Shown here piece by piece: positions 17,572 to 47,013 of a stretch of DNA of 64,000 nt (positions are counted from its first letter, which is position 1; every line of letters begins with the position of its first letter). Origin of the DNA: a virus; UHGV virus genome UHGV-1366171; one strand, written 5' to 3'. The translations under genes were made by a program, and so were the position numbers. Below the pieces are notes generated by a model. It had not been told where the DNA came from and made no database searches. It saw only the letters and a program-made list of their open reading frames with translations.

Positions 17572-17733
17572 TATGTGGTTTAGGTATTTAATATCATTCA
17601 TTGATGTTTTAATGGTTTTTTGCCTGATATATTTTATGAATGGATTGTCCTGGGAAGATAATAAAGCCTCTATTTTAGGATTCGGAATAATGTTTTTCAG
17701 TTATATAGCGAGTATTGCTCTAATGTGGATATA
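17572..17733 (+). CDS. small two-TM membrane protein (53 aa)
   Basis: MWFRYLISFIDVLMVFCLIYF...; below ORF-track cutoff. Confidence 0.3.
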
Positions 17734-17743
17734 AGGCTTATTT

Positions 17744-17832
17744 TGGGCTATCGCCAAGCGGTTAAGGCACCGGGCTTTGACCCCGGAAGAGAAGGAACGC
17801 TCTTTACGCTGGTTCGAATCCAGCTAGCCCAG
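17744..17832 (+). tRNA. class II-type tRNA (long variable arm) with apparent UUG anticodon
   Basis: TGGGCTA-TC-GCC/AAGCGGTTAA/GGC-A-CCGGG/CTTTGAC/CCCGG-21 nt variable arm-GCTGG/TTCGAAT/CCAGC-TAGCCCA-G; T1-A72. Confidence 0.45.
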
Positions 17833-18054
17833 TTGGTTTCTGATTTTGGCATAGAAACTTTCTCCACCACCTACGGCGCAAGGCTGTGACAAAAGGAGAT
17901 TCAAATGCTCCGGGTGGTTTTGTCCGACTACTGTTTGAGGACGTAAAATAAAAGAACAGCGTGTAGATTGGCGGTAAGGCGATACGATTCTAAATACCGC
18001 ATGGTGCCTAAAGCAGCACGATAAATAATGCAAAAACGGGAGAAATCCCGTTAC

Positions 18055-18128
18055 GGATCATTAGCTCAGATGGTGAGAGCCGTTGCCTCATAAGCAGAAG
18101 GTCGTAGGTTCGAGTCCTACATGATCCA
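18055..18128 (+). tRNA. tRNA-Met/Ile2 (CAT)
   Basis: GGATCAT-TA-GCTC/AGATGGTGA/GAGC ... loop CTCATAA ... GTAGG/TTCGAGT/CCTAC-ATGATCC-A. Confidence 0.75.
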
Positions 18129-18187
18129 TTCCGCCATAGCTAGTACCCTTTGGCTGTCAGGTACGGCAGCGGCTATGGTAGGAACCA

Positions 18188-18270
18188 CGAGACGTAGCTA
18201 AATTGGCAGAGCACTGAAAGCCGGATACAACTATGTACAGAAGACGGCGGTTCGAATCCGCCCGTCTCGA
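18188..18270 (+). ncRNA. tRNA-like RNA: perfect acceptor (CGAGACG/CGTCTCG), D-arm and T-arm but no foldable anticodon arm
   Basis: 32-nt central segment CTGAAAGCCGGATACAACTATGTACAGAAGAC gives no 5-bp/7-nt anticodon hairpin. Confidence 0.4.
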
Positions 18271-18464
18271 TTTTACCACTTAGCAGGATGGGTATACCTG
18301 CTACGAAATCCTGTGAAAAAACTTTTCTAGAGAGATAAGACCAAAGGTCGTGAGGAGCAGTAGTCGGTGATTCTGGAAGATTCCCGGAAGTATGAGATGC
18401 AAAACGCCGTAAGTCTGTGGTACCTGCGACACGTTAATTGCATGGTGGTTTTATAAGGGAATAC

Positions 18465-18536
18465 GCCGATATAGTTCAATGGTAGAACGCTACACTTGTA
18501 ATGTAGATGCTATTGGTTCGAGTCCGATTATCGGCT
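18465..18536 (+). tRNA. tRNA-Thr (TGT)
   Basis: GCCGATA-TA-GTTC/AATGGTA/GAAC-G-CTACA/CTTGTAA/TGTAG-ATGCT-ATTGG/TTCGAGT/CCGAT-TATCGGC-T. Confidence 0.75.
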
Positions 18537-19026
18537 TTCGTATGGAGACTTGTGCAGATACCAATTCGCGGAATGGCAAACAGAAACTAGTGCTCTATAC
18601 GTAAATTACAGCAATTCAGATGGCCGGTACATCGGCGGCGCAATAAGCCGTGAATGGTTGCTGATAAGACTGAGATCCAGGAACTAAGGCGCGTATAATG
18701 TTGCCTGGAGGGAAAATATCAAATGGGTTTGGCCACCAGGAGATATGTTTTTCGGTAAAGTGCGGGGGTATTTTATCATGCTCAGTCTTTAATCTATCTG
18801 CCAAGTGCAGAAAAGGAATCCGGTTTTCGTATGACGATTACTGGTTTTAGCTCATGTACCAAGTGCACAAGGAGCATTCGACGCAGATGATGATAAAATA
18901 TGCGTTTGAGGTGAAAATCAACCTATGCAGTCTGCGGATTGCATAACCGTGATAGGCGATATTATATACCGGCATCGTTTGAAAAGAAATCCGAGTAAAA
19001 GCCAACTTTTCTTACCTTGTCGGTTC

Positions 19027-19100
19027 CGGGATGTAGCGTAGTTTGGTAACGCGCCTAATTTGGGATTAGGAGATCGTCGGTTCAAATCCGGCCATTCCGG
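19027..19100 (+). tRNA. tRNA-Pro (TGG)
   Basis: CGGGATG-TA-GCGT/AGTTTGGTA/ACGC-G-CCTAA/TTTGGGA/TTAGG-AGATC-GTCGG/TTCAAAT/CCGGC-CATTCCG-G; C1-G72 as in bacterial tRNA-Pro. Confidence 0.75.
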
Positions 19101-20856: not shown

Positions 20857-22056
20857 ATGAATGAAGAAGATAAGGGAGACCAAGAAAGGATGCTAAAGAG
20901 TTACAAGACGGAAATCAATCCAACTATGGAACAAATACATAAAATCAATAAAACAATTGGCACTTGCCGTTTTGTATACAACTTTTATCTTGCCCGCAAC
21001 AAAGAAGTTTATGAAAAAGAGAAGAAATTTGTATCTGGAATGGAGTTCTCAAAATGGCTAAATAATGTTTATTTAAAAGAGAATCCAGAGTATGTATGGA
21101 TAAAAGAGGTTAGCACAAAATCGGTAAAACAAAGCATTATGAATTCCGAAAGATCTTTTAAGAGATTCTTCAAAGGACAGTCCGGTTTTCCTAAATTCAA
21201 GAAGAAAGGAAAATCGGATGTAAAAATGTATTTTATGAAAACAAATTCTCAGACAATAATAACATGCGAAAGACACCGAATCAAAATATCGACACTCGGA
21301 TGGGTTAGATTAAAAGAAAAGGGATATATTCCTTGGGATTCAAATACTTACATTATCAAGAGTGGTACTGTTTCTTGTAGAGCTGGACGATATTATGTAT
21401 CAGTCTTGGTTGAGCAACCAGAAAGAGAAAGACTACAATTACAAGATTTTGGATTTGGAATTGACCTTGGTGTTAAAAATTTTGCGGTTATAAGCAATGG
21501 GCTTGTAAAGAAAAACATCAATAAAACAAATAAGGTAAAAAAATTAGAAAAACAACTAAAACGAGAACAACGGTGTCTTTCTAGGAAATACGAAAGTTTA
21601 AAGAAGAATAATAAGAAAGGAGAGTCTTCCAGAGAAAATATTCAAAAACAAATATTAAAGGTGAAAAGGCTTTATTGCAGGATAGACAATATCCGCACTG
21701 ACTACATCAATAAAACAATAGCTGAGATTGTGAAAACCAAACCATCTTATATCGCTGTTGAAGATTTGAATGTATCAGGTATGATGAAGAACAGGCATCT
21801 TTCGAAGGCTGTTGCATCACAAAAATTTTATGAATTTAGAGTGAAATTGGAAGCAAAATGCAAAGAATATGGAATTGAATTGAGAATTGTAGACAGATGG
21901 TATCCATCCAGTAAACTTTGCCATGAATGTGGTTGTATCAGGAAAGACTTAAAACTTTCTGACAGAGAATATGTGTGCGAATGTGGATATCATGCAGATA
22001 GAGATTATAATGCAAGTCTTAATTTAAGAGATGCCACATCCTACAAAGTAGCATAA
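20857..22056 (+). CDS. tnpB: TnpB (IS200/IS605-family OrfB, RuvC-like + C-terminal zinc finger)
   Basis: N-terminal OrfB_IS605 region (KTEINPT...GTCRFVYN), C-terminal CHECGC...CECGYHADRDYNASLNL zinc finger. Confidence 0.8.
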   Translation: MNEEDKGDQERMLKSYKTEINPTMEQIHKINKTIGTCRFVYNFYLARNKEVYEKEKKFVSGMEFSKWLNNVYLKENPEYVWIKEVSTKSVKQSIMNSERSFKRFFKGQSGFPKFKKKGKSDVKMYFMKTNSQTIITCERHRIKISTLGWVRLKEKGYIPWDSNTYIIKSGTVSCRAGRYYVSVLVEQPERERLQLQDFGFGIDLGVKNFAVISNGLVKKNINKTNKVKKLEKQLKREQRCLSRKYESLKKNNKKGESSRENIQKQILKVKRLYCRIDNIRTDYINKTIAEIVKTKPSYIAVEDLNVSGMMKNRHLSKAVASQKFYEFRVKLEAKCKEYGIELRIVDRWYPSSKLCHECGCIRKDLKLSDREYVCECGYHADRDYNASLNLRDATSYKVA

Positions 22057-22421
22057 ACAAGCATTTGCAGGTATGTACCGATGGCTAGTCGGGAATTGAC
22101 GACTGTGGAGTGTACAAGAACTTGTGAGTAGTATCTGTATTTACTCAGGGCGAAAGCATATACAGAGAAGCAGTAAGAAATGTTCGCAAGAACTTTCAAT
22201 ATCTCGATATGGATATCTTTGTTCATATTTTGAGTAGCAGCCAAGCGTAAGCGGAGATTGAAAAATTTTTATATTCACAGAATCGAGATGAAAAAATGTA
22301 AAACAAGCAAAATCTTCTATGTAAATAGAAATAGAAGTTAAGTAAAATAAGATGAAATAGTAAAATGAGAGTCATTTGAGAGCCAAATTTCTTACTAAGT
22401 AGGGAAGGAGGCTCTTTTGTT

Positions 22422-24131
22422 TTGCGAGAAGGAACGCTTGAATGGTACAAAAAAATTTTTTCGGAAATCTTAAAAGACGACATGACACAATACCAAAACC
22501 AAATAGATAGCTGGCAGCTTCTTTTGAATATGAAGCAAGATTTAGGTTTTGAGGATAAAGAAATTCGTGATTATGCTATGAAGATCAGCCAGTACACACA
22601 CAAGATGGCTGACTATGTAGCAGGGCAGACGGGAAGCGGAAAGTTTAATGATTTGTACTATAAATTGTTATTGTTGGAAGCTCAAAATTATCAAGTGGAT
22701 AGCGGACTTCTATATCTGGAAAAAAATAGAGTTCCCAAGGAACGATTTTATGAGCCGCGCCGAGAGGTTTTTATAAAGCACCAAATTATCCAGTCATTAC
22801 AGGATTTGATGGATGATAAACTTGATATTTTTGCTTTGAGCGTTCCACCGGGTTGTGGTAAATCAACTCTGGAAGATTTTTTCTTATCCCTTGTTGGTGG
22901 ATGGTTCCCAAATGATTTTAACCTATCCTCAGCGCATAGTAGCATTTTGACCCATTCCCTTTATGATGGCGTATTGGAAATTATAAATGACCCGGTAGAG
23001 TATACATGGCATGAAATATTTCCTAATGTAAAGCTGACTGGAACAAATGCTAAGGAAACCACAGTAAACCTCGAAAGGAATGGGCGATTTAAAACATGGA
23101 CTTTTCGTTCCATAGATGGTTCGTTGACGGGAGCCACAAGATGTAATCGTTTTTTGACAGCAGATGACTTGGTATCTGGAATTGAAGAAGCACTGAACAA
23201 GTCACGCCTGGAAACACTTTGGACAAAGGTTGTGAATGATCTTCGTTCCAGACGACTTGAAGGGTGTAAAGAAATCTATATTGCCACAAGATGGTCTGTC
23301 CATGACCCGATTGGAAAACTACAACAGCTATATGAAGGAAATCCCAAAGCCAGATTTATTGCGGTTCCGGCTTTGAACGAAGATGGCGAGAGTAACTTCA
23401 TGTTTGCGGTGAATGGATTTTCAAAGAAATACTTCATGGACGCTAAGGAATCTATGGATGATCTATCCTTTAAATGCCTGTATCAGCAACAGCCGATTGA
23501 GCGAGAGGGATTACTATTTCCTACAGATGAACTGCGCCGCTTTTTCTTCAATCGGGAGCAAGTACCGGAAAAGCAGACAGAGTTTATTATTATGCCAGAG
23601 CGGACGCCTGATGCTATATGGGCGGTGTGCGATACAAAGGATACAGGAGCGGATTTTGAATCTTTACCGATTGCATATCAATTTGGAGAAGATTTTTTTA
23701 TACCGGATGTAGTATTTGATGACACAACAGATTATGACACATTGGATATGAAATCCGCTAATATTTTGATTCGACACAATCCCCATAAGATAAGGTTTGA
23801 ATCAAATAGTGCAGGAGGCAGAGTCGCGCATAATGTTCAAAAATTGATAGATGGAAAATGTCGAGCACAGATCGAGCCTGAGAGAACACAAGCGAACAAA
23901 GAAACCAAAATATTAGTCAATTCTGATTGGATTAAAAAACACTGTATATTTTTAGACCCAAGTTTATATACGCCAAAATCAGACTATGGTTTGTTCATGG
24001 AAAATGTGGTTACATATACAGTCAAAGTTAAGCCGCCACATGATGATGGGCCAGACTCTCTGGCAATGCTTGCAGAATATGTAGCAAGGCCAGTGCAAAA
24101 ACCAACAACAATAATCAATAGTCCGATTTGA
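22422..24131 (+). CDS. terminase large subunit
   Basis: TTG start with RBS GGAAGGAGG; ATPase region SVPPGCGKST; 569 aa typical TerL size and position before portal. Confidence 0.7.
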   Translation: MREGTLEWYKKIFSEILKDDMTQYQNQIDSWQLLLNMKQDLGFEDKEIRDYAMKISQYTHKMADYVAGQTGSGKFNDLYYKLLLLEAQNYQVDSGLLYLEKNRVPKERFYEPRREVFIKHQIIQSLQDLMDDKLDIFALSVPPGCGKSTLEDFFLSLVGGWFPNDFNLSSAHSSILTHSLYDGVLEIINDPVEYTWHEIFPNVKLTGTNAKETTVNLERNGRFKTWTFRSIDGSLTGATRCNRFLTADDLVSGIEEALNKSRLETLWTKVVNDLRSRRLEGCKEIYIATRWSVHDPIGKLQQLYEGNPKARFIAVPALNEDGESNFMFAVNGFSKKYFMDAKESMDDLSFKCLYQQQPIEREGLLFPTDELRRFFFNREQVPEKQTEFIIMPERTPDAIWAVCDTKDTGADFESLPIAYQFGEDFFIPDVVFDDTTDYDTLDMKSANILIRHNPHKIRFESNSAGGRVAHNVQKLIDGKCRAQIEPERTQANKETKILVNSDWIKKHCIFLDPSLYTPKSDYGLFMENVVTYTVKVKPPHDDGPDSLAMLAEYVARPVQKPTTIINSPI

Positions 24132-33636: not shown

Positions 33637-34320
33637 ATGGTAAGTATTTTTGAAGAACGTAATGTAAGAATAATTTGTAGTAAAAACAGGAGCGAAATAT
33701 GGTTTAGTGCGATTGATGTTGGAGAAGAATTAGGGATCGCAAATATTCGTGATACACTAAGAAATATTGATCGTTCAGAAAAGAAGAAATTTACTAATGA
33801 AATGATTTCGGGTGTCGGAGTTTTCTACACCCGGAATTTTAATTCACCATTGAACAATTACGGAGAAACATTTGTATCTGAAGAAGCTGTTTATAATATG
33901 GCGTTCAGAAGCAACAAACCAGAAGCCAAGCTGTTTACAAAATGGGTAACAAAGGTATTAAAGCAAATCCGTGTAAATGGATTCTATGTTCTGGACGGAA
34001 AAGGAGAAGAGCGGTTAAAGACCAGAGAAGAGACAAAGAAAGTACGCCGGATGGAAACGGACACAATCAAGAAATATGTGGAGTACGCAAAATCGCAGGG
34101 CAGCACCCATGCAGATATGTACTACCAGAATTTCACGAAGCTGGTTCAGAACTGTTTGGGAATCGAAGCCGGGAGAAGAGATGATTTAGACCAGAAAACA
34201 CTTTTGCGGTTGAAGTCTTTGGAAACGCTGATTGATATGCGACTGGAAAATTTATTGAAAACAGACATTCCCTATAAAGATATGTATGAGGATGTAAAAG
34301 AACTGATTCGGAGCATTTGA
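33637..34320 (+). CDS. Bro-N domain antirepressor-like protein
   Basis: N-terminal Bro-N-like RIICSKNRSEIWFSAIDVGEELGI. Confidence 0.5.
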   Translation: MVSIFEERNVRIICSKNRSEIWFSAIDVGEELGIANIRDTLRNIDRSEKKKFTNEMISGVGVFYTRNFNSPLNNYGETFVSEEAVYNMAFRSNKPEAKLFTKWVTKVLKQIRVNGFYVLDGKGEERLKTREETKKVRRMETDTIKKYVEYAKSQGSTHADMYYQNFTKLVQNCLGIEAGRRDDLDQKTLLRLKSLETLIDMRLENLLKTDIPYKDMYEDVKELIRSI

Positions 34321-34694
34321 CAGGAGGAGCTATGCAGGACTGTAAAGTAAATATTTTGGGAACGGAATGGAACATTATTTTTCAGACGATAGAACAGGAC
34401 AAGGCATTTGCTGATTGTGATGGATATTGCGACCCGACAGTTAAGAAAATCCACGTCCGCCTATACACGGATGAAGAAGTGAAAGAACAGAAATTCGGAT
34501 ACGAAAGCAGAGAAGAACATAGAAAGAGGGTTATTCGTCACGAAATTCTACATGCGTTCATGTTCGAGAGTGGTTTGTGGCAAAATAGCTTTTGCGCTGA
34601 TGTTCCGTGGGCTATGGGAGAAGAAATGATAGATTTCTATGCAATCCAGTCTCCAAAAATCTTCAAGGTATTTCAAGAACTGGATATTCTTTAA
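34317..34694 (+). CDS. hypothetical protein
   Basis: ATGA-coupled ORF. Confidence 0.4.
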   Translation: MTGGAMQDCKVNILGTEWNIIFQTIEQDKAFADCDGYCDPTVKKIHVRLYTDEEVKEQKFGYESREEHRKRVIRHEILHAFMFESGLWQNSFCADVPWAMGEEMIDFYAIQSPKIFKVFQELDIL

Positions 34695-34909: not shown

Positions 34910-35296
34910 ATGATAGATGAATTTTATATAAATGGGATTCATTGGAATGTACAGTGGACGAATCCAAGCAATCCTATTTTGGTGGACAGGACAAATGTTT
35001 TGACCTGTGCAGTAACCGACCCAGAAACTATGACGATTTATCTATCAGATCGTCTTAAAGGAGAGTTTTTAAATCATGTGCTTATTCATGAGCTTGGACA
35101 TTGCGTAATGTTCTCTTATGGACTTGTGAATGAAATTCATAGAATGTGCAAGAAACGATTCTGGATTGAAATGGAAGAATTTTGTGCGAACCTGCTTGCT
35201 GATTATGGACGACAGATATTTGGTATAGCCTATTCGGTATTAGGAGAACAGGCGATTCATGTTGTTCCTTATCATATGGAAAAACTTGTTGCGTAG
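34910..35296 (+). CDS. putative zinc metallopeptidase (HExxH)
   Basis: VLIHELGHCVMF motif. Confidence 0.4.
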   Translation: MIDEFYINGIHWNVQWTNPSNPILVDRTNVLTCAVTDPETMTIYLSDRLKGEFLNHVLIHELGHCVMFSYGLVNEIHRMCKKRFWIEMEEFCANLLADYGRQIFGIAYSVLGEQAIHVVPYHMEKLVA

Positions 35297-37935: not shown

Positions 37936-38634
37936 ATGTTAGTAGAAATTGTTGGGAAAAGATATGAGGAAAAGTTAGTTACAACAAGCCTGAGAATAGC
38001 AGAAACATTTACCTACTATGATGAAGAAAGCGGAAGGCAATATACAAGAGAACACAAAGCTGTTCTAAGAGCCATTCGCGATTTAAAATGCAGCGAAAAA
38101 TTTCGCGGTGAACATTATTCACCGTCAGAATACGTGGACGAAAGAGGGAAAAGGCAACCATGTATAATTATGGATAAAGACGGCTTTGTATTACTTGTTA
38201 TGGGATTTACAGACCCGAAAGCAATGTTTTACAAGGAAAAATATATTGAAGCCTTTAATTCCATGGAGTCCGAACTCAAACGTATTTACACAGAACGACA
38301 GCAATGGCAGATTGAAAGAGATAAAGGCGTTGTAATTCGTCATATCTTAACCGATACAATTAAGATGAAAATATCCGACAGTCCACATAAGCGATTTGCT
38401 TATCCTAATTATACTAATTTGATTTATCGAACTTTGTTCGGGAAAACAGCAAAAGAATTAGAGGAAGAATTTGGGGTGAAACCGAAAGAAAATTTAAGAG
38501 ACTATTTTACTGGGGAATCATTATCCCAAGTTCAGGGCATGGAAATGCTTGTAAGTAGCCTTATAAACTGTGGCTGGGGCTACAAAGAGATAAAAGAATT
38601 TATTGAAACAGAATCCAAGAAAATGATAGCTTAA
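37936..38634 (+). CDS. Rha-family phage regulatory protein
   Basis: N-terminal TSLRIAETF...VLRAIRDL pattern of Phage_pRha. Confidence 0.45.
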   Translation: MLVEIVGKRYEEKLVTTSLRIAETFTYYDEESGRQYTREHKAVLRAIRDLKCSEKFRGEHYSPSEYVDERGKRQPCIIMDKDGFVLLVMGFTDPKAMFYKEKYIEAFNSMESELKRIYTERQQWQIERDKGVVIRHILTDTIKMKISDSPHKRFAYPNYTNLIYRTLFGKTAKELEEEFGVKPKENLRDYFTGESLSQVQGMEMLVSSLINCGWGYKEIKEFIETESKKMIA

Positions 38635-38722: not shown

Positions 38723-39205
38723 ATGGCAGCACCAGGTGTTAGTACACTAGGCGTATTATTCGGTTATGGAGTAGAAACTGTGGCAGGAACAAAGCCAGAA
38801 AAATTTACATTATTGACAAGAATTAATCAGATCGGTGGAATTTCTATTGATGTTGAAACGATTGATGCCTCTGCACTGGAAGATAAAGTAGAAAAAACAG
38901 TTGCTGGTCGAGGAAGTACAGGTGGAACATTCACGGTAACAGTAAATGTTACTGACGAAACATTAGAAGAGTGGGAAGCGTTAATCGAAGCATACAAAAC
39001 AGGAAAAACAGGTGGAAAGTCCACGTGGTTTGAAACTTTTATTCCTACTTTGCAAAAAGCATTTTATGTTGTTGCAGAGCCACCCACTACAATTCCGCAG
39101 CCTGAATTTGACCAAAATGGATTATTGGCAGTAGAAATGACGTTAACGATTAACGATTATAAGGGGCCTGACACACCGATTAAACCGACAGCGGGGGAAT
39201 CATGA
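38723..39205 (+). CDS. major tail protein
   Basis: 160 aa, T/G/V-rich, directly upstream of chaperone pair and tape measure. Confidence 0.5.
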   Translation: MAAPGVSTLGVLFGYGVETVAGTKPEKFTLLTRINQIGGISIDVETIDASALEDKVEKTVAGRGSTGGTFTVTVNVTDETLEEWEALIEAYKTGKTGGKSTWFETFIPTLQKAFYVVAEPPTTIPQPEFDQNGLLAVEMTLTINDYKGPDTPIKPTAGES

Positions 39206-39793: not shown

Positions 39794-40108
39794 ATGACGA
39801 AGAAAACATTTTTTCATTCTACATTGAGGGAAGTTAAATTATACATTGATGCGTTTTACATGGAAAAGGATTATCAGAGTAAATGCATAGAGCATCAGTC
39901 TTGGCTTACTGGTGCATATGTAATGAACGCGGTAGTTGCGGCTTTTAATAAAAAAGCAAAGTACCCAGAAAATCCTTTATTAGAAAACACTAAAACAATT
40001 AAAGAGATAGCGAAGAATAACAATAAATCAGAAGAAGAAATGAATCAGGAGTTACTTTACATGACATTAAGAGTAAGGCAGACTAATGCCAGACTCGAGA
40101 AGAGATAG
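39794..40108 (+). CDS. tail assembly chaperone (gpT-like) / small tail protein
   Basis: position immediately before tape measure. Confidence 0.4.
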   Translation: MTKKTFFHSTLREVKLYIDAFYMEKDYQSKCIEHQSWLTGAYVMNAVVAAFNKKAKYPENPLLENTKTIKEIAKNNNKSEEEMNQELLYMTLRVRQTNARLEKR

Positions 40109-40188
40109 GGCGGGGCAAGAACCCCGCCCTTTTGTTGGTTATCAACGAGATGATAATCATTAACCTCAAAAAATTAGGAGGTAGGTAT

Positions 40189-41688
40189 ATGGGAAGTGGA
40201 AACATTGATAATCTGGATATAAGAATATCCGCCGATGCAAACAAAGCGCAAAAATCACTGGAATCATTAGCGAGGACTTTAGACAAAGTCAACAAGTCAT
40301 TTAAAGGTATGAACACGGTGGCTGTGGGGAATTTTTCAAGAAATGTAAATACTCTTGCAAGTTCTCTCAGGGCTTTGAATGGTTTAAAAATATCAGTACC
40401 CAAAGTATCAGGATTGGCTAAGGAGATGGCAGCATTAAGTAAAGTGGATTTCGCTAAACTTAATGCCGGGATAGAACCAATACGGAATATGGCCTCTGCT
40501 ATTAAATCTATGGAGGGGATAGAAAATATCCAGGTTCCCAAAATAGATACAAAAAATTTAAGTTCTTTGGCGAATGCAGCAAAAAAATTTTCAGATATCA
40601 AAACAGAAAACATGCCGGAGGTTGCGGAAGGACTGAAAAAAATATCTGAATCCATGGAAGTGCTTTCGAAAATAACATTTAGTGATCGGAATTTAAACAA
40701 TGTTATTAATGCACTAAATCGTTTGTTTAAAGCGGATTTTTCGAAATTCAATCCATCGGATTTTGATAAGATCACAAAGTCGATTAGTGCGTTAAGCACG
40801 ATGCCGGATGTGTCAAACAGCATTAATAGATTTGTAGCATCTTTGGCTAGGCTTTCTAATGCTGGAAATAAAATCACGGTAGTATCCGATAAATTACCGG
40901 AATTATCAAGAGCTCTTAGCAAAATGATTCGTGATATGTCAAAAGCCAGAAACATATCGAAATCAACGAATGAATTTGTTTCATCAATCGCACGACTGGC
41001 GAATGCCGGTGACAAGGCCACAAAAACTTCTTTAGGGTTGGGAGTTCTTGCATACGAAACTTTGAATTTTTTCAATGTGATGAAAAACGCGCCGCGTATT
41101 AGCAGTAACACACTGCGCATGGTGGAAGCATTGTCCAGGTTGGCCAGTGCCGGGAATAGAGTTGGCTCGTCAACAAGCGGTGTACAAACTGCATTTAGTA
41201 AATTAACTAATCTGTCTACAAAAGCTGGAAATGTTGTAAAGAAATCCGTTTCTGCGATTGTAAATGCTTTTAAGCAGTTGGGAAATTCTAGTTCTTCTGT
41301 AAATAAGGCTACGTTAAGTTTGAAAAATTTATTATCCACAGCACTTCTTTATAGAGGGGCAACAGGACTTTATAATTGGGCCAAACAAGCTACCATGCTA
41401 GGTTCTAATATTACAGAAGTGGAGAACGTGGTTAATGTTGCGTTTGGTAGCATGGCAAATCAGGCTTATGAATTTGCTTCTACAGCTACAGAACAATTTG
41501 GACTTTCGGAATTGGCTGCAAAACAATACTCGGGAACCATGATGTCTATGTTAAAAGCATCTGGTGTAGCAACAGATTCGGCAGCAGAAATGTCTACAAC
41601 TTTGGCTGGATTAGCAGGCGATTTGGCATCATTTTATAATATTGACACAGATGCAGCATTTTACAAGATTCGTGCAGGAATAGCGGGT
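40189..41688 (+). CDS. tail tape measure protein, exon 1
   Basis: RBS AGGAGGTAGG; repeats of ...ASSLRALNGL.../...VASLARLSNAG...; reading frame continues into 42831 after removal of intervening element. Confidence 0.6.
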
Positions 41689-42830
41689 AGACAATTTGCC
41701 CCTTGTCGCTGTAAGGCGGCATAGAAAATCGACCAAAATCGGTAAAAGCTAAATTGATAAAATGAAAAATATATCGGGTATTTATAAGATAACTAACAAC
41801 GTTAATGGAAAATTTTATATTGGCTCATCGCAAAATATCTCTCGTAGATGGTATGACCACAAAAGGGAACTTCGCATACAGAAACACCATAATAAGTATC
41901 TACAACGTGCTTGGAATAAGTATGGAGAAGAAAATTTTTCTTTTGAGATAGTTGAAGAATGCAAAGTAGAGGAACTAAGTGATCGAGAGCAATTATACAT
42001 CGAAAAATATGTAAACAGTGATTTTTGCTATAATATTTCGATTGACACAATCGCTCCTATGCGTGGGAAAAAACATTCGGAAGAAGCGAAGCGAAAAATG
42101 TCAGAATCCAGAAAGGGATTAATGGTAGGACCGAAAAATCATATGTATGGAAAGCATTTATCAGATGAAGAGAAGAAAAAGCTTTCCTTGGCTTTTTCGG
42201 GAGAGAAAAATCCTATGTATGGAAAACATTTATCCGATGAGTCTAAAAGAAAAATATCGGAGGCTCATAAAGGAACGAAATGTCCAGAATATTTAAAAAG
42301 AAGATATAGACTTGAAATGCTTGGGAGCGGTAATCCGTTTTACGGAAAACATCACAGTAAAAAGTCTTTAGAGTTAATGAGCAAGAATAGAACGGGGCTT
42401 TTAAAAGGAGCAGATAGTCCTGTTAGTAGAAAAGTTGTTAGAATATCCGAGAATACCAATGAAATCAAAATATATGATACGGTAACAGAAGCTGCAAAAA
42501 GCAATAATGCTCAAAGGTCACACATAGCACTTGTGTGCAGGGGAGAAAGAAAACATGCAGGCGGATACCGGTGGATGTATTTTGAAGATTATCAACATGC
42601 TAATACCGAGGTAAGCGATCAGATTGCGAAAGGCTGATTGCCACCGTAACGCGTAGGAGTTGAAAAAATATAATACTCCCAAGAGTGGTTGACAACCATA
42701 ATAGGTAAATATACGAGATATTTTATTTTATGGTTGAAAATGTACGCTGAACCGGGGATGAAGCAACATCCCGTAATGCGAGGAAACTCCCGGAAGCATC
42801 GGATAAAAAGCCGGTGCGGTAACATAATTG
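41689..42830 (+). mobile_element. putative group I intron (1142 nt) in tape measure gene, carrying a GIY-YIG homing endonuclease ORF
   Basis: exon1 ends ...GCG GGT(T) | intron ... (G) | GAA ATC GAA: in-frame fusion gives ...IRAGIAG-EIEPLRQLGVDM..., the conserved tape-measure motif. Confidence 0.55.
41762..42637 (+). CDS. GIY-YIG homing endonuclease with NUMOD3 repeats
   Basis: [18 protein letters not shown]...R...H...E...N; repeats [13 protein letters not shown] / [13 protein letters not shown] / [10 protein letters not shown]. Confidence 0.75.
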
Positions 42831-45800
42831 GAAATCGAACCTTTGCGGCAGCTTGGCGTAGATATGACTGTGGCATCCTTGGAGGCATATGCTTTAGCAA
42901 ATGGAATCACAAAATCGTATATGTCCATGTCGCAAGCTGAGAAGGTAATGCTGCGGTACAATTATTTAATGTCTGTTACATCTGACCAACAAGGAGACTG
43001 GGCCAGGACTTCACAAAGCTTTGCAAACCAATTCCGATTATTAAAACTGAACTTTCAATCTTTATCAGCAACCATGGGACAAGGTTTCATAGCTGTAATA
43101 TTGCCGGTTATACAAGGCTTAAATGCGCTCTTGGCCAAACTCCAAGAGGTAGCAAAAGCGTTTCGGAATTTTCTCTATGTTTTGACAGGATATGAATCAC
43201 CTGGCGGCCAGTCTGGTATTGTAAATGATCTTGCAGGCGTTGGGGATGCATCTGTTGGACTTGATGATCTTGCAGGCGCGGGAGAGGATGCTTCATCTGG
43301 TTTAGACGATGCGACAGAAAGCGCCCAGGATTTAAAGAAAGCATTATCAGTTTTATCGTTTGATGAATTGAATCAGTTATCGTCGATTGATACCTCTTCG
43401 CTGGATTCCAGCGTTGGGGATTTAGGGGATATTAGCGACGGTATTAACAATAGCTTAGGAAATGGCGAACTGGTTCCGAGTGATATTTTCAAGGATACCC
43501 CGGTAGAAAAATATATTTCTGAGTTAGCCGAAAGAATGAGAAAGGCAGCCGAAAAAGAGGACTGGGAAGAACTTGGAAAGATCATTGCAGGGGAAATTAA
43601 CAAAGGACTGAAGAAGATTTACGATGTTATTAATTGGAATAACGTCGGACCTAAGATAACCGCATTTGTAACAGCTTTTACCAGAACTTTTAATAGCCTA
43701 GTTGATAATATTGACTGGAATTTAATGGGGAGAACCATTGGGGCCGGAGTCAATACAATCGTAAATACCTTGAATCTTCTTATTGGGGATGGAGGAATTG
43801 ATTTTACCAATATTGGGACAAAGATTGCCACAGGGTTACGTGGCGCAATCAAAGAAATAGACTGGGGGAACCTGGGTAATCTTTTAGGAAATTACTTTAT
43901 GATTTCTTGGGACATGCTTTCTGGATTTGTGCAGGAGATGTCTAAGGAAGACGGAGCAGGTATTACGGGCTGGGATGAGTTAGGGACTTCATTAGGAGAA
44001 GCTGTCAATGGTATATTCGAGAAGATTGATTTTGGCGAAATTGGAACTACTTTAGTAACCGGAATTAACGGAGCATTTTCAACCCTTAAAAGTTTTACGG
44101 ATGAAGTAGAATGGGACGATCTCGCTACAAATATATCTACAGGAATAAATAATGCCATTCATAATTTCAACTGGCCTGAGAATGGACAAGCGTTAAATCA
44201 GTTTATTGGCGACTTCCTGGGAGCTTTGCTTCAAATAGCACAAGATACAGATTGGGAAGAGTTAGGAAGGGGCATTGGGGAATTTCTAGGAGAGATCGAC
44301 TGGCTTAAACACTTAGGAACGGTTATATCCATAATTGTAGAAACTTTAGGGGGACTATTTGATGGATTAGAAGAATCTGGAATGGCTGGGAAAATAGCAG
44401 CGTTTCTAGGAAAAGCTTTTATTGCGGTAAAAATAGCGAATATAACAGGAATAGGAAGTCTTATCGGAAAAATAGTTTCCCTTATGGGAACACGGTTTAT
44501 GTCCAGGAGTTCTACAGGGAGCTTAGGGCAAAGTATAGGAACATTTATTAATAGAGCTTTTTCTATTGGTGGGTCTTTAGCAAAAGCCGGAGGCGCGGCT
44601 TTAGCAGTTGATTTATTTGGAAAATTGAAGGATGTTATTTCTGGAACCAGAAAAGAAACAATAGAAGCCACTACTGCTTTTACAGTCATAGAAAGAGCAT
44701 TATCTAAATTTGTAGAAAGCGGAGACATTACATTAGACCAATTCTATAAATTAGCTAATGGTGTGAATGATATTAATAATGGGACAAAAACTTTTGATGA
44801 TGTTTTGACCGAAGTGAATTCTACATTAGAAGAAGCAGGGGTTTCTTCAGAAGAATTTCAAAATGCAATTTATGAAGCAACAGAGCAAACAGGAATTAAT
44901 GTTGATAAATTGTCTAATAAAGTGATAGCAGCAATGGAATCAGCAGGATATTCTTTTACTGAAACAAGCGATAAGGTTAGCGAGAATTCTATCAAAATTG
45001 GAAATAATATTATAAATGCGGCGAGCGAAATAGATAAGGCAAAAGGTATTTGGATTCAGGGACTCAATGGATGGGAACAGGTAACTGGGGAAAAAGCTCT
45101 TGGCATTTATGCTGGAATTCAATCAGGCTTATATCCTGAGAACGGACAAGGATATTATGATTTAGGAAATGGCGTACTTGCAAGTTTTGGAAATGGTATT
45201 ACAGAAGGAACAGAGAATTTCAAAACCACGTTAGATACCACATTGCTCCAAGCGTTAAGAGACAAGCTTCCTGAAGGCTATACGTTGGGATATGATAATG
45301 GAAAATTCACTGTTCAGCAATATGAAGCTGGAATTAACGAAGGGGCACTCACATTAGGGGAAACCTTAAACAACGCTACTATCGCAAAGATCAACAGCAT
45401 TCTTCCCCAAGGAAGTATTCTTACATATCAAAATGGACAGTGGACAATACAACAGTATGCTTCGGGCATGAGTCAAAATGGCGAAGGTACGGACTTGGCG
45501 ATTAGTGCTGCTACCATAGACAAAATTAGCGCTATTTTACCAGAGGGAGTTACAATCGCATACAATAACGGAACACAAACGATCGATGGATATAAGAGTG
45601 GACTGAATGATACTGGGGATACAGTTTTTGATTCATTAAAAAGAGTGTTCTTGGATGGAATAAATTTAGATGAAGAATTGAAGGAAAAATATTCCGGTTA
45701 TGCAGCTTTGTCTGTAAAAGGATATAACGAAAAAATAGAAGAGTTAAAATCTGAAACTGAAAACCAAATGGAAGATTTAGCTCATAATGGAATCATGTTA

Positions 45801-46472
45801 CCGTTTGCTGGAATGCTTGAAATTAATTCACCTTCTAGGGTATTTGAAGGATATGGCGAAAATGTATCTGAAGGGTTGGCGAAAGGTATTGATGCAAAGG
45901 CCGATGAACCTACCAGCAGAATAGAAAATATAGGAAGCTCCTTGATAGACATGATTAGCGACACAATGAATAATCTTTCCGACAAATTCAGTGAGGGTGA
46001 GAACTCTGCACAAAATAGCGCGAATTCCATTCAAGATGCTTTTTCTAATTTATATATTCCGCTCCCGCATGTGAACTGGGATTGGAATTATGTCAGTGTA
46101 GGAGACTGGGAGATACCAATTCCTGATTTTTCTATTGATTGGTATAAAACTGGTGGACTTTTTACTAGGGCCACGATTGCAGGAATAGGTGAAGCTGGCA
46201 ATGAGGCGGTTTTGCCATTGGAAAATAAACGGACTATGGGGATGATCGCAGATAGTATCTTAGCTAATGCATCTGTAGGCATGGATGAAAGAATTTTAAC
46301 AGAGGCCGTAGCAAGAGGTGTAGCAATGGCTATGATGAATAATAATCAGAATCAGCCGCCTATTAATGTATACGCAACATTATATACTGAAGATAACGAA
46401 GTTTTAGCTAGGGCAGTACAAAAGGGGCAGGACAGCATAGATTACAGGTTTAATCCTTCGGTAGCTTGGTAA
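42831..46472 (+). CDS. tail tape measure protein, exon 2
   Basis: LEAYALANGITKSYMSMSQAEKVMLRYNYLM...QGDWARTSQSFANQFR hallmark; 1213 aa. Confidence 0.65.
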   Translation, partial: EIEPLRQLGVDMTVASLEAYALANGITKSYMSMSQAEKVMLRYNYLMSVTSDQQGDWARTSQSFANQFRLLKLNFQSLSATMGQGFIAVILPVIQGLNALLAKLQEVAKAFRNFLYVLTGYESPGGQSGIVNDLAGVGDASVGLDDLAGAGEDASSGLDDATESAQDLKKALSVLSFDELNQLSSIDTSSLDSSVGDLGDISDGINNSLGNGELVPSDIFKDTPVEKYISELAERMRKAAEKEDWEELGKIIAGEINKGLKKIYDVINWNNVGPKITAFVTAFTRTFNSLVDNIDWNLMGRTIGAGVNTIVNTLNLLIGDGGIDFTNIGTKIATGLRGAIKEIDWGNLGNLLGNYFMISWDMLSGFVQEMSKEDGAGITGWDELGTSLGEAVNGIFEKIDFGEIGTTLVTGINGAFSTLKSFTDEVEWDDLATNISTGINNAIHNFNWPENGQALNQFIGDFLGALLQIAQDTDWEELGRGIGEFLGEIDWLKHLGTVISIIVETLGGLFDGLEESGMAGKIAAFLGKAFIAVKIANITGIGSLIGKIVSLMGTRFMSRSSTGSLGQSIGTFINRAFSIGGSLAKAGGAALAVDLFGKLKDVISGTRKETIEATTAFTVIERALSKFVESGDITLDQFYKLANGVNDINNGTKTFDDVLTEVNSTLEEAGVSSEEFQNAIYEATEQTGINVDKLSNKVIAAMESAGYSFTETSDKVSENSIKIGNNIINAASEIDKAKGIWIQGLNGWEQVTGEKALGIYAGIQSGLYPENGQGYYDLGNGVLASFGNGITEGTENFKTTLDTTLLQALRDKLPEGYTLGYDNGKFTVQQYEAGINEGALTLGETLNNATIAKINSILPQGSILTYQNGQWTIQQYASGMSQNGEGTDLAISAATIDKISAILPEGVTIAYNNGTQTIDGYKSGLNDTGDTVFDSLKRVFLDGINLDEELKEKYSGYAALSVKGYNEKIEELKSETENQMEDLAHNGIMLPFAGMLEINSPSRVFEGYGENVSEGLAKGIDAKADEPTSRIENIGSSLIDMISDTMNNLSDKFSEGENSAQNSANSIQDAFSNLYIPLPHVNWDWNYVSVGDWEIPIPDFSIDWYKTGGLFTRATIAGIGEAGNEAVLPLENKRTMGMIADSILANASVGMDERILTEAVARGVAMAMMNNNQNQPPINVYATLYTEDNEVLARAVQKGQDSIDYRFNPSVAW

Positions 46473-46541
46473 TTTTTTTGAAAGCCTTGACGAAAATCTC
46501 TTTTTTGTAGTACAATGTATTACAAGAAAGGAGATGAGTTT

Positions 46542-46775
46542 ATGAGCTTTTCAATTAGACTTACCCCAGAAGAAAAATCTCTTGCCGAGAGTTATGCAAA
46601 ACTTCATTCATTGTCTGTTGGCGAGGCTTTTAAAAGGGCATTATTTGAGAGAATCGAGGATGAGTACGATATTGTTGTAGCAGATGAAGCTTACAAAGAA
46701 TACTTGGATAGTGGCTGTAAATCTACTCCTATCGCTGATTTTTGGAGGGAGTTAGACGATGAAATACAATGTTGA
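46542..46775 (+). CDS. relB: RelB/DinJ-type RHH antitoxin
   Basis: MSFSIRLTPEEKSLAESYAKLHSLSV; overlaps toxin gene. Confidence 0.55.
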   Translation: MSFSIRLTPEEKSLAESYAKLHSLSVGEAFKRALFERIEDEYDIVVADEAYKEYLDSGCKSTPIADFWRELDDEIQC

Positions 46776-47013
46776 GTTATCCGACCGGTTTAAGCGAGAA
46801 TTCAAGAAATTGGATAAATACACACAGAAGATTATTAGATCATGGATAGATAAGAATCTTGTCGGGACTGAAAATCCACGCCAGTATGGTAAAGGATTGA
46901 CGGCAAACCGTAGCGGTCAATGGAGATACCGAATAGGAGATTATCGTCTTATTTGCCAGATAGAGGATTCTGAGCTAATTATTCTTGCTTTGTCCGTTGG
47001 ACATAGAAGATAA
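46759..47013 (+). CDS. relE: RelE/ParE-family toxin
   Basis: 84 aa; ...RYRIGDYRLICQIEDSELIILALSVGHRR. Confidence 0.6.
   Translation: MKYNVELSDRFKREFKKLDKYTQKIIRSWIDKNLVGTENPRQYGKGLTANRSGQWRYRIGDYRLICQIEDSELIILALSVGHRR

Follow-up and report, generated by a model that had tools for sequence, protein, structure and literature searches.

A putative mobile group I intron with a GIY-YIG homing endonuclease gene at a conserved site in the tape-measure gene of a gut-metagenome phage

The tail tape-measure gene of a siphovirus-like genome from a gut metagenome very probably carries a mobile group I intron with its own homing endonuclease gene, for which both splicing and homing are predicted. The window analyzed is a stretch of 64,000 nucleotides from UHGV virus genome UHGV-1366171, and removing positions 41689 to 42830 from it fuses two open reading frames (ORFs) into a single tape-measure gene of 1,713 codons (40189 to 41688 plus 42831 to 46472). 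Group I introns in the tape-measure genes of prophages have been known since 2008, including relatives of the family described here; new in this case are the insertion site and the phage. Coordinates of the exons, the intron, the endonuclease cassette, and each RNA helix are collected in Table 1.

The limits of the insert can be placed to the nucleotide. In the window, one ORF ends at 41724, a long ORF in a different frame runs from 42828, and a 291-codon ORF lies between them. Exon 1 closes with GCA GGA ATA GCG GGT at 41688, the 1,142-nt insert opens with AGACAA and ends with AATTG, and exon 2 begins with GAA ATC GAA CCT at 42831. When joined, the exons read ...KIRAGIAG followed directly by EIEPLRQLGVDM... 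in a single frame, with the first stop at 46472. A 235-residue query centered on the junction found 67 homologs, about 25 of which cover 97 to 100% of the query. There is no gap at the junction in a 16-sequence protein alignment, and the residue just before it (G114) is invariant. An intron-less allele (L010) aligns with the joined exons over 292 nt of DNA at 75% identity with 0 gaps. The first-pass annotation of this DNA had placed the insert at 41689 to 42830 (1.14 kb), had claimed that joining 41688 to 42831 restores a conserved tape-measure motif, and had proposed an alignment with uninterrupted homologs; the limits proved exact, the motif ...AGIAG-EIEP... (hyphen, junction) is restored in one frame, and the homologs run gaplessly through the junction in both protein and DNA. 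Because this insert is present in six independent metagenome contigs at 98.9 to 100% identity, it is not an assembly artifact.

Identification of the split gene as the phage tail tape-measure gene, also made in the first-pass annotation, is supported by similarity and by position. The joined segment matches the tape-measure family phrog_1535 (PHROGs, E = 3.5e-49), and the gene order runs capsid, major tail (38723 to 39205), two small ORFs, and then this gene, which places it behind the major tail and chaperone-position genes. Pfam gave no tape-measure domain for the joined gene. A megablast search of the whole gene against a phage collection returned no match, so no annotated close relative was at hand. 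Translation probably begins at ATG 40189, which follows an AGGAGG Shine-Dalgarno sequence, and not at TTG 40132. Read-through from exon 1 meets an in-frame stop (TAG, 41722 to 41724) 11 codons into the intron. The unspliced message had earlier been said to yield a protein truncated at 530 residues; a truncated product still follows, but with the start at ATG 40189 its length is probably 500 plus 11 residues. In database clusters (P0029), gene calling has broken this tape-measure gene into two proteins without names.

The surrounding genome holds several other features. Directly after the tape-measure gene is a toxin-antitoxin pair (46515 to 47013), in which a DUF6290 antitoxin-like ORF (E = 2.9e-24) overlaps a ParE-family toxin ORF (E = 1.1e-15). 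A strong terminator-like hairpin (GGGCGGGG-caagaa-CCCCGCCC-TTTT, 40111 to 40136) separates the small ORF at 39794 to 40108 from the tape-measure start at 40189, an odd spot within a tail operon. A Bro-N domain gene (33637 to 34320) and a Rha-family regulator gene (37936 to 38634) sit amid the head and tail genes, and the same Rha gene is present in a close relative, L004. Two neighboring ORFs (34317 to 34694 and 34910 to 35296) align with one and the same N-terminal stretch of phrog_1233 (function unknown) and look like tandem paralogs. Just upstream of the terminase large-subunit gene (22422 to 24131), a TnpB-like gene (20857 to 22176; OrfB_IS605, Cas12f1-like TNB, and HTH_OrfB) lies 46 nt ahead of a RAGATH-18 RNA (62 bits); together they resemble an IS605-type element that carries its guide-RNA region, here within a phage genome. 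Six tRNA genes are clustered on the + strand at 12115 to 19100.

Table 1. Features of the split tape-measure gene, the candidate intron, and its predicted RNA structure (window coordinates)
Feature	Position	Strand	Description and basis
Tape-measure exon 1	40189..41688	+	500 codons, ends ...AGIAG; ORF listing, phrog_1535 match, homolog alignment
Tape-measure exon 2	42831..46472	+	1,213 codons plus stop, begins EIEPLRQLG
Candidate group I intron, 1,142 nt	41689..42830	+	Gapless junction versus intron-less alleles; covarying core; family-model hit
Predicted homing endonuclease gene	41762..42637	+	291 aa; GIY-YIG, four NUMOD3 repeats, weak I-HmuI-like NUMOD match
Endonuclease cassette, 831 nt	41759..42589	+	In P5 loop of window copy; absent from ORF-less L081 intron at same gene site
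P1	41685..41701	+	Exon GGGU (41685-41688) plus intron AGA pair with UUU-GCCC (41695-41701); U41688·G41698 wobble at 5' splice site
P10 guide segment	41695..41697	+	UUU pairs with GAA (42831-42833), start of exon 2; read from sequence
P2 hairpin	41704..41721	+	UGUCGC/GCGGCA; RNAfold; stop TAG 41722-41724 comes after
P3 5' strand	41729..41734	+	UCGACC, pairs with 42687-42692; 6/6 pairs compensatory, 98.5% of cells paired; also RNAfold
P4 5' strand, P5 5' strand	41739..41749	+	UCGGUA (41739-41744), AGC (41747-41749); covariation; same RF00028 assignment on ORF-less relatives
P5 3' strand, P4 3' strand	42599..42609	+	GCU (42599-42601), UACCGA (42604-42609); covariation alignment
P6 and P6a hairpin	42610..42645	+	P6 GGU/ACC, P6a GCGAUCAG/CUGAUUGC; 10/11 pairs compensatory, 98.7% paired
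P7 5' strand	42651..42655	+	GCGUA, pairs with UACGC 42743-42747; 100% paired; group I pseudoknot with P3
P7.1 hairpin	42656..42679	+	GGAGU/ACUCC, conserved loop UGAAnAAAUAUAAU; 5/5 pairs compensatory, 100% paired
P3 3' strand	42687..42692	+	GGUUGA; covariation alignment
P8 hairpin	42693..42736	+	CAACCAUAA/UUAUGGUUG; 5/5 tested pairs compensatory; RNAfold
J8/7 and P7 3' strand	42737..42747	+	AAAAUG and UACGC; family alignment, covariation
P9 domain	42752..42816	+	P9 CCG/CGG, P9a GGGAUG/CAUCCC, P9b GAG-GAAA-CUC, P9.2 CAUCGG/CCGGUG with conserved loop AUAAAAAG; 22-sequence alignment
Terminal G (omega-G)	42830	+	Read from sequence; every hand-delimited relative also ends in G

Evidence for a structured RNA comes from relatives of the insert. 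A BLAST search of phage records aligned the last 230 nt of the insert, at its 3' end, with several split genes: the terminase of phage JCL1032, loci beside HNH endonuclease genes in Staphylococcus phages (ROSA and others), crAss-like phages, and the tape-measure genes of two further phages, BMBtp13 of Bacillus and CBP1 of Caldibacillus. In JCL1032 the matching stretch falls within a terminase CDS whose annotation joins two pieces (RefSeq NC_019456). Hand comparison of the insert with these BLAST-related split-gene sequences produced the helix set in Table 1.

At the splice sites, P1 was read from the sequence and is also part of the RNAfold centroid structure of the ORF-deleted intron, and its U·G arrangement recurs in BMBtp13, CBP1, JCL1032, SA2, and CpeS-1181. 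Exon 1 ends in U41688 and the intron in G42830, in keeping with the U/G rule for group I splice sites that the first-pass annotation had invoked. Several helices of the window copy are short, which counts against the intron reading: P1 has 4 + 3 bp, P10 has 3 bp versus 5 to 6 bp in JCL1032, SA2, and BMBtp13, and P5 has 3 bp, P5 being the weakest helix across the intron family. P2 has a counterpart (GCAGUC/GGCUGC) in L081 (IMG/VR UViG_3300029561_000002), a relative with an ORF-less intron at the same gene site, and J6/7 in the window reads GUAAC. An initial hand reading of P7 paired GGCU (in the P6a loop or the 5' region) with AGCC in the AUAAAAAGCC motif; it was rejected because that motif is the loop of the covarying hairpin P9.2 and because GCGUA/UACGC covaries perfectly as P7. 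For a loop-loop contact between L6a GGCU and L9.2 AGCC, inspection by eye across the relatives found no matching changes.

The core was then evaluated in a 57-sequence alignment made up of the ORF-removed window sequence, seven named phages, and 49 compact contig copies. Over 41 pairs of P3 to P8, with P7 written as a pseudoknot, 97.2% of the pair cells were paired, versus 72.4% in shuffles and 34 to 45% with slid partners. Both sides had changed in 33 of the 41 pairs, compensatory cells numbered 583 versus 158 in shuffles, and none of 500 shuffles came up to these figures. The helices keep the order P3-P4-P5-P6-P7-P8, with P3 and P7 crossing in the group I pseudoknot. P7 is nearly invariant in this alignment (G-C, C-G, G-C or A-U, U-A, A-U), which is what one would expect of a catalytic helix; at its third pair, 34 sequences have GC and 23 have AU, with zero exceptions. 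Since the retrieval patterns constrained the two P7 strands independently, this correlation was not created by the selection of sequences. In the 22 members with a branched P9 domain, 98.7% of the cells in that domain were paired and 15 of 18 pairs were compensatory.

Folding and model searches agree with the alignment. RNAfold on the ORF-deleted intron alone recovered P1, P2, P3, P4, P5, P6/P6a, P7.1, P8, and the P9 hairpins (z = -4.05). A covariance model (R1) built from 48 relatives, with the window sequence left out, matched 42602 to 42754 over its full length (126.8 bits, E = 9e-27) and had no other match in the window; all 26 modeled core pairs are standard in the window copy. The strict 25-base form of the P7-P7.1-J7.1/3 pattern occurs once in the window, versus none expected by chance, and at least 119 loci with this pattern were found in viral contigs. 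The group I architecture that the first-pass annotation had suggested around the ORF is supported by covariation across many related phage introns.

Rfam's own group I model gives a different result. RF00028 had no hit at the gathering threshold in the whole window, none at E ≤ 10 in positions 41400 to 43100, and none on the 3' half of the insert; weak Rfam hits to other families in the window were dismissed as chance. The Intron_gpI search of the insert that the first-pass annotation had put forward as a check was therefore negative, and it is taken here as a false negative: the P3-P7 core is found by comparative analysis although Rfam's model misses it. When applied to the compact, ORF-less SA2 terL intron, RF00028 reached 29.9 bits (E = 4e-6), short of its cutoff of 50 bits, and put P1, P3, P4, P5, P6, P7, P8, and P9 on the same segments as the hand model, with P7.1 as an insertion. 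On the ORF-less L081 intron it scored 23.1 bits (E = 6e-4), also below the cutoff, with the same P2-P6 assignment. Because ORF-less relatives receive significant subthreshold hits and 831 nt sit in the P5 loop of the window copy, the negative result reads as a limit of the model and not as evidence against an intron; Rfam probably misses the window copy owing to this cassette, which a covariance model is unlikely to span. RF00028 does not flag this intron family at the gathering score, a detection gap that a dedicated model such as R1 would close by recovering the copies.

The ORF within the intron encodes, judging by its domains, an I-TevI-like GIY-YIG/NUMOD3 homing endonuclease, as the first-pass annotation had recognized. 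Pfam matches are to GIY-YIG (PF01541, 42.2 bits versus a cutoff of 22.6) and to NUMOD3 (88.6 bits in 4 stretches), with an I-HmuI NUMOD-like domain at 23.6 bits, below the cutoff of 27. The protein also matches the phrog_314 homing endonucleases (PHROGs, E = 7.5e-65) and the I-TevI catalytic domain (1MK0, E = 2.7e-10), with GIY...YIG, RRW, DRE, and YNI (the Tyr, Arg, Glu, and Asn motifs) in register. Its last 16 codons and TGA stop (42635 to 42637) lie inside the ribozyme core, across P5', P4', P6, and P6a, and no Shine-Dalgarno sequence could be recognized for this gene, a point against the mobile-intron reading.

Two relatives outline the history of the cassette. The P5 loop of L081 consists only of AGCUAAAUUGAU joined to UAUCAACAUGCU; the window sequence matches both flanks, which sets the cassette limits at 41759 to 42589. 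In L004 (4109 to 4997), a 13-nt insertion splits the endonuclease of the same intron into ORFs of 139 and 140 aa, while the sequence otherwise differs at only two positions over the 1,331 nt compared, which looks like endonuclease decay within a near-identical intron. Presence and absence of the cassette, together with L004, fit the usual picture in which an endonuclease gene invades a preexisting intron and later decays.

Three other accounts of the split gene were weighed against the mobile intron. The element could be a decayed, nonsplicing relic, with the tape-measure gene a pseudogene in a defective prophage or a nonviable genome, and two observations would suit that account: Rfam does not recognize the RNA, and decay does occur in the lineage, as L004 illustrates. 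The break in L004, however, hits the endonuclease ORF, and in the window copy 26 of 26 modeled core pairs are standard, the family model scores 127 bits over its full length, and both exons are open for 5.1 kb. Identity of 99.9 to 100% in five separate samples also fits a circulating phage, and a relic is accordingly rated improbable.

It is even harder to credit that a free-standing endonuclease gene split the tape measure into two halves that are translated separately and then assemble as proteins, with RNA splicing playing no part. Such an arrangement has a precedent in nrdA of phage Aeh1, which is split by mobE, and here TTG 42828, which is three bases short of the junction, could open an ORF. 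Yet no Shine-Dalgarno sequence precedes this fortuitous TTG, although most genes in the window have AGGAG or GGAGG, and the endonuclease gene lies within a group I fold that is conserved and covaries, not in plain intergenic DNA. In L081 the same gene site holds a form of the RNA that lacks the ORF, which shows that the RNA amounts to more than the flanks of an endonuclease gene. An intervening element of another kind is almost certainly not the answer, the interruption of the gene being the only point in its favor. A group II intron would clash with the lack of any reverse transcriptase/maturase or group II Rfam hit in the window; an intein is excluded because the insert is in a different frame and stops 11 codons in; and a translational bypass would have to span 1,142 nt, far more than the known ribosomal hops.

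With a mobile group I intron as the preferred reading, the expected course of events can be laid out. The transcribed RNA would adopt the P1-P10 structure and bind an external guanosine at P7, which would attack after U41688; the freed exon 1 would then attack after G42830, leaving ...GGU joined to GAA... in an mRNA that would be translated into one tape-measure protein of 1,713 residues. In a coinfection, the endonuclease would cut intron-less tape-measure alleles, and repair would copy the intron into them. We infer self-splicing catalysis, homing, and the endonuclease target from sequence. A speculative variant, to which we give little weight, is that splicing is not constitutive: unspliced message, stopping 11 codons into the intron in P2, might supply a 511-residue N-terminal fragment with a role of its own, or the splicing rate might time or limit tail assembly.

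Copies of this intron family occupy terminase, helicase, head-tail, and tape-measure genes of Firmicutes phages and crAss-like phages, and published splicing data were found for none of its members, a further point against the intron reading. By its sequence, the window intron belongs with the terminase intron of Lactobacillus phage JCL1032 and the element in the head-tail gene cluster of Staphylococcus phage ROSA. The presence of P7.1 between P7 and the P3 3' strand identifies it, at the level of predicted structure, as IA type; a narrower IA1 label rests on the classing of BLAST-related introns by Tourasse and Kolsto (PMC2504315), with only a single P7.1 seen in the window. Deposited records of BMBtp13 and CBP1 carry the tape measure in two or three "tape measure" pieces.

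Individual family members vary in where they carry additional sequence. Long AT-rich stretches follow the P3 3' strand in the viral contigs L017, L022, L025, L026, and L046, where the P8 hairpin is expected, which points to ORF insertion into the P8 loop instead of the P5 loop. In the crAss-like phage cr6_1, the ORF annotated as an endonuclease is upstream of P2, and its reading frame continues to P6a. Another contig (L134, 4578 to 4873) has a related tape-measure gene (P0045) that is interrupted 13 codons downstream of the window's site, after ...GINMSV, by an element bearing R and S-like motifs of the classic group I kind (GUAACGACUAA, GAUAUAGUCU); RF00028 gives it only 21 bits (E = 0.0024), with no gathering-level hit, and the contig ends inside the element. 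The conserved tape-measure stretch around the window and L134 sites may be an intron hot spot.

The closest published setting is that of Bacillus cereus-group prophages, whose tape-measure genes have group I introns at three sites (Tourasse and Kolsto 2008, PMC2504315). Those introns were classed as IA1 or IA2, the TMP-IVS3 set as IA1; a homologous terminase intron, term-IVS1, and a second one, term-IVS2, gave BLAST matches to the JCL1032 and ROSA introns, and homologous introns carry GIY-YIG, HNH, or no endonuclease (PMC2504315). Like TMP-IVS3a/b, term-IVS1, and term-IVS2 (PMC2504315), the window element would be an IA-class group I intron inside a phage tape-measure or terminase gene. Its insertion site differs, lying after the invariant G of ...GIAG-EIEP..., with P1 and the internal guide sequence (IGS) adapted to that site, and its host is a gut-metagenome siphovirus-like genome instead of a B. 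cereus-group prophage. One more insertion site is thereby added, located at the best-conserved motif of a tape-measure protein. BMBtp13 combines two forms, with two introns in a tape-measure gene annotated as three "tape measure" CDSs (L001, 2426 to 2644 and 2947 to 4093): one is canonical and ORF-less (RF00028, 97 bits), and the other is of the window-type family with an HNH endonuclease ORF.

The JCL1032 terminase large-subunit intron shares 77% identity with the window over P4'-P7.1 and has the same helix set, with a 6-bp P1 containing the U·G and a 6-bp P10. Unlike the window copy, it carries no ORF, is compact at about 230 nt, folds its P9 as a simple hairpin, and resides in a different host gene. 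The terminase intron of phage LL-H, which earlier literature cites as already described, was not retrieved by BLAST with the JCL1032 intron. The T4 td intron with I-TevI is alike in being a group IA intron in a phage gene with a GIY-YIG endonuclease in a peripheral loop and a homologous catalytic domain. In T4, the I-TevI ORF is in a P6 extension, and the enzyme binds DNA via a zinc finger and a helix-turn-helix; the window ORF is in the P5 loop and encodes four NUMOD3 repeats, and RNA sequence similarity between the two introns is not detectable. L081 shares the tape-measure site (its exon 2 opens with EIEPLKQLG) and the helices of the window copy, and it is 75% identical over the 3' half of the intron and the start of exon 2. 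It differs in its longer P8 and in being without the 831-nt cassette, and one site thus offers a clean comparison of an intron bearing the endonuclease cassette with an intron lacking it.
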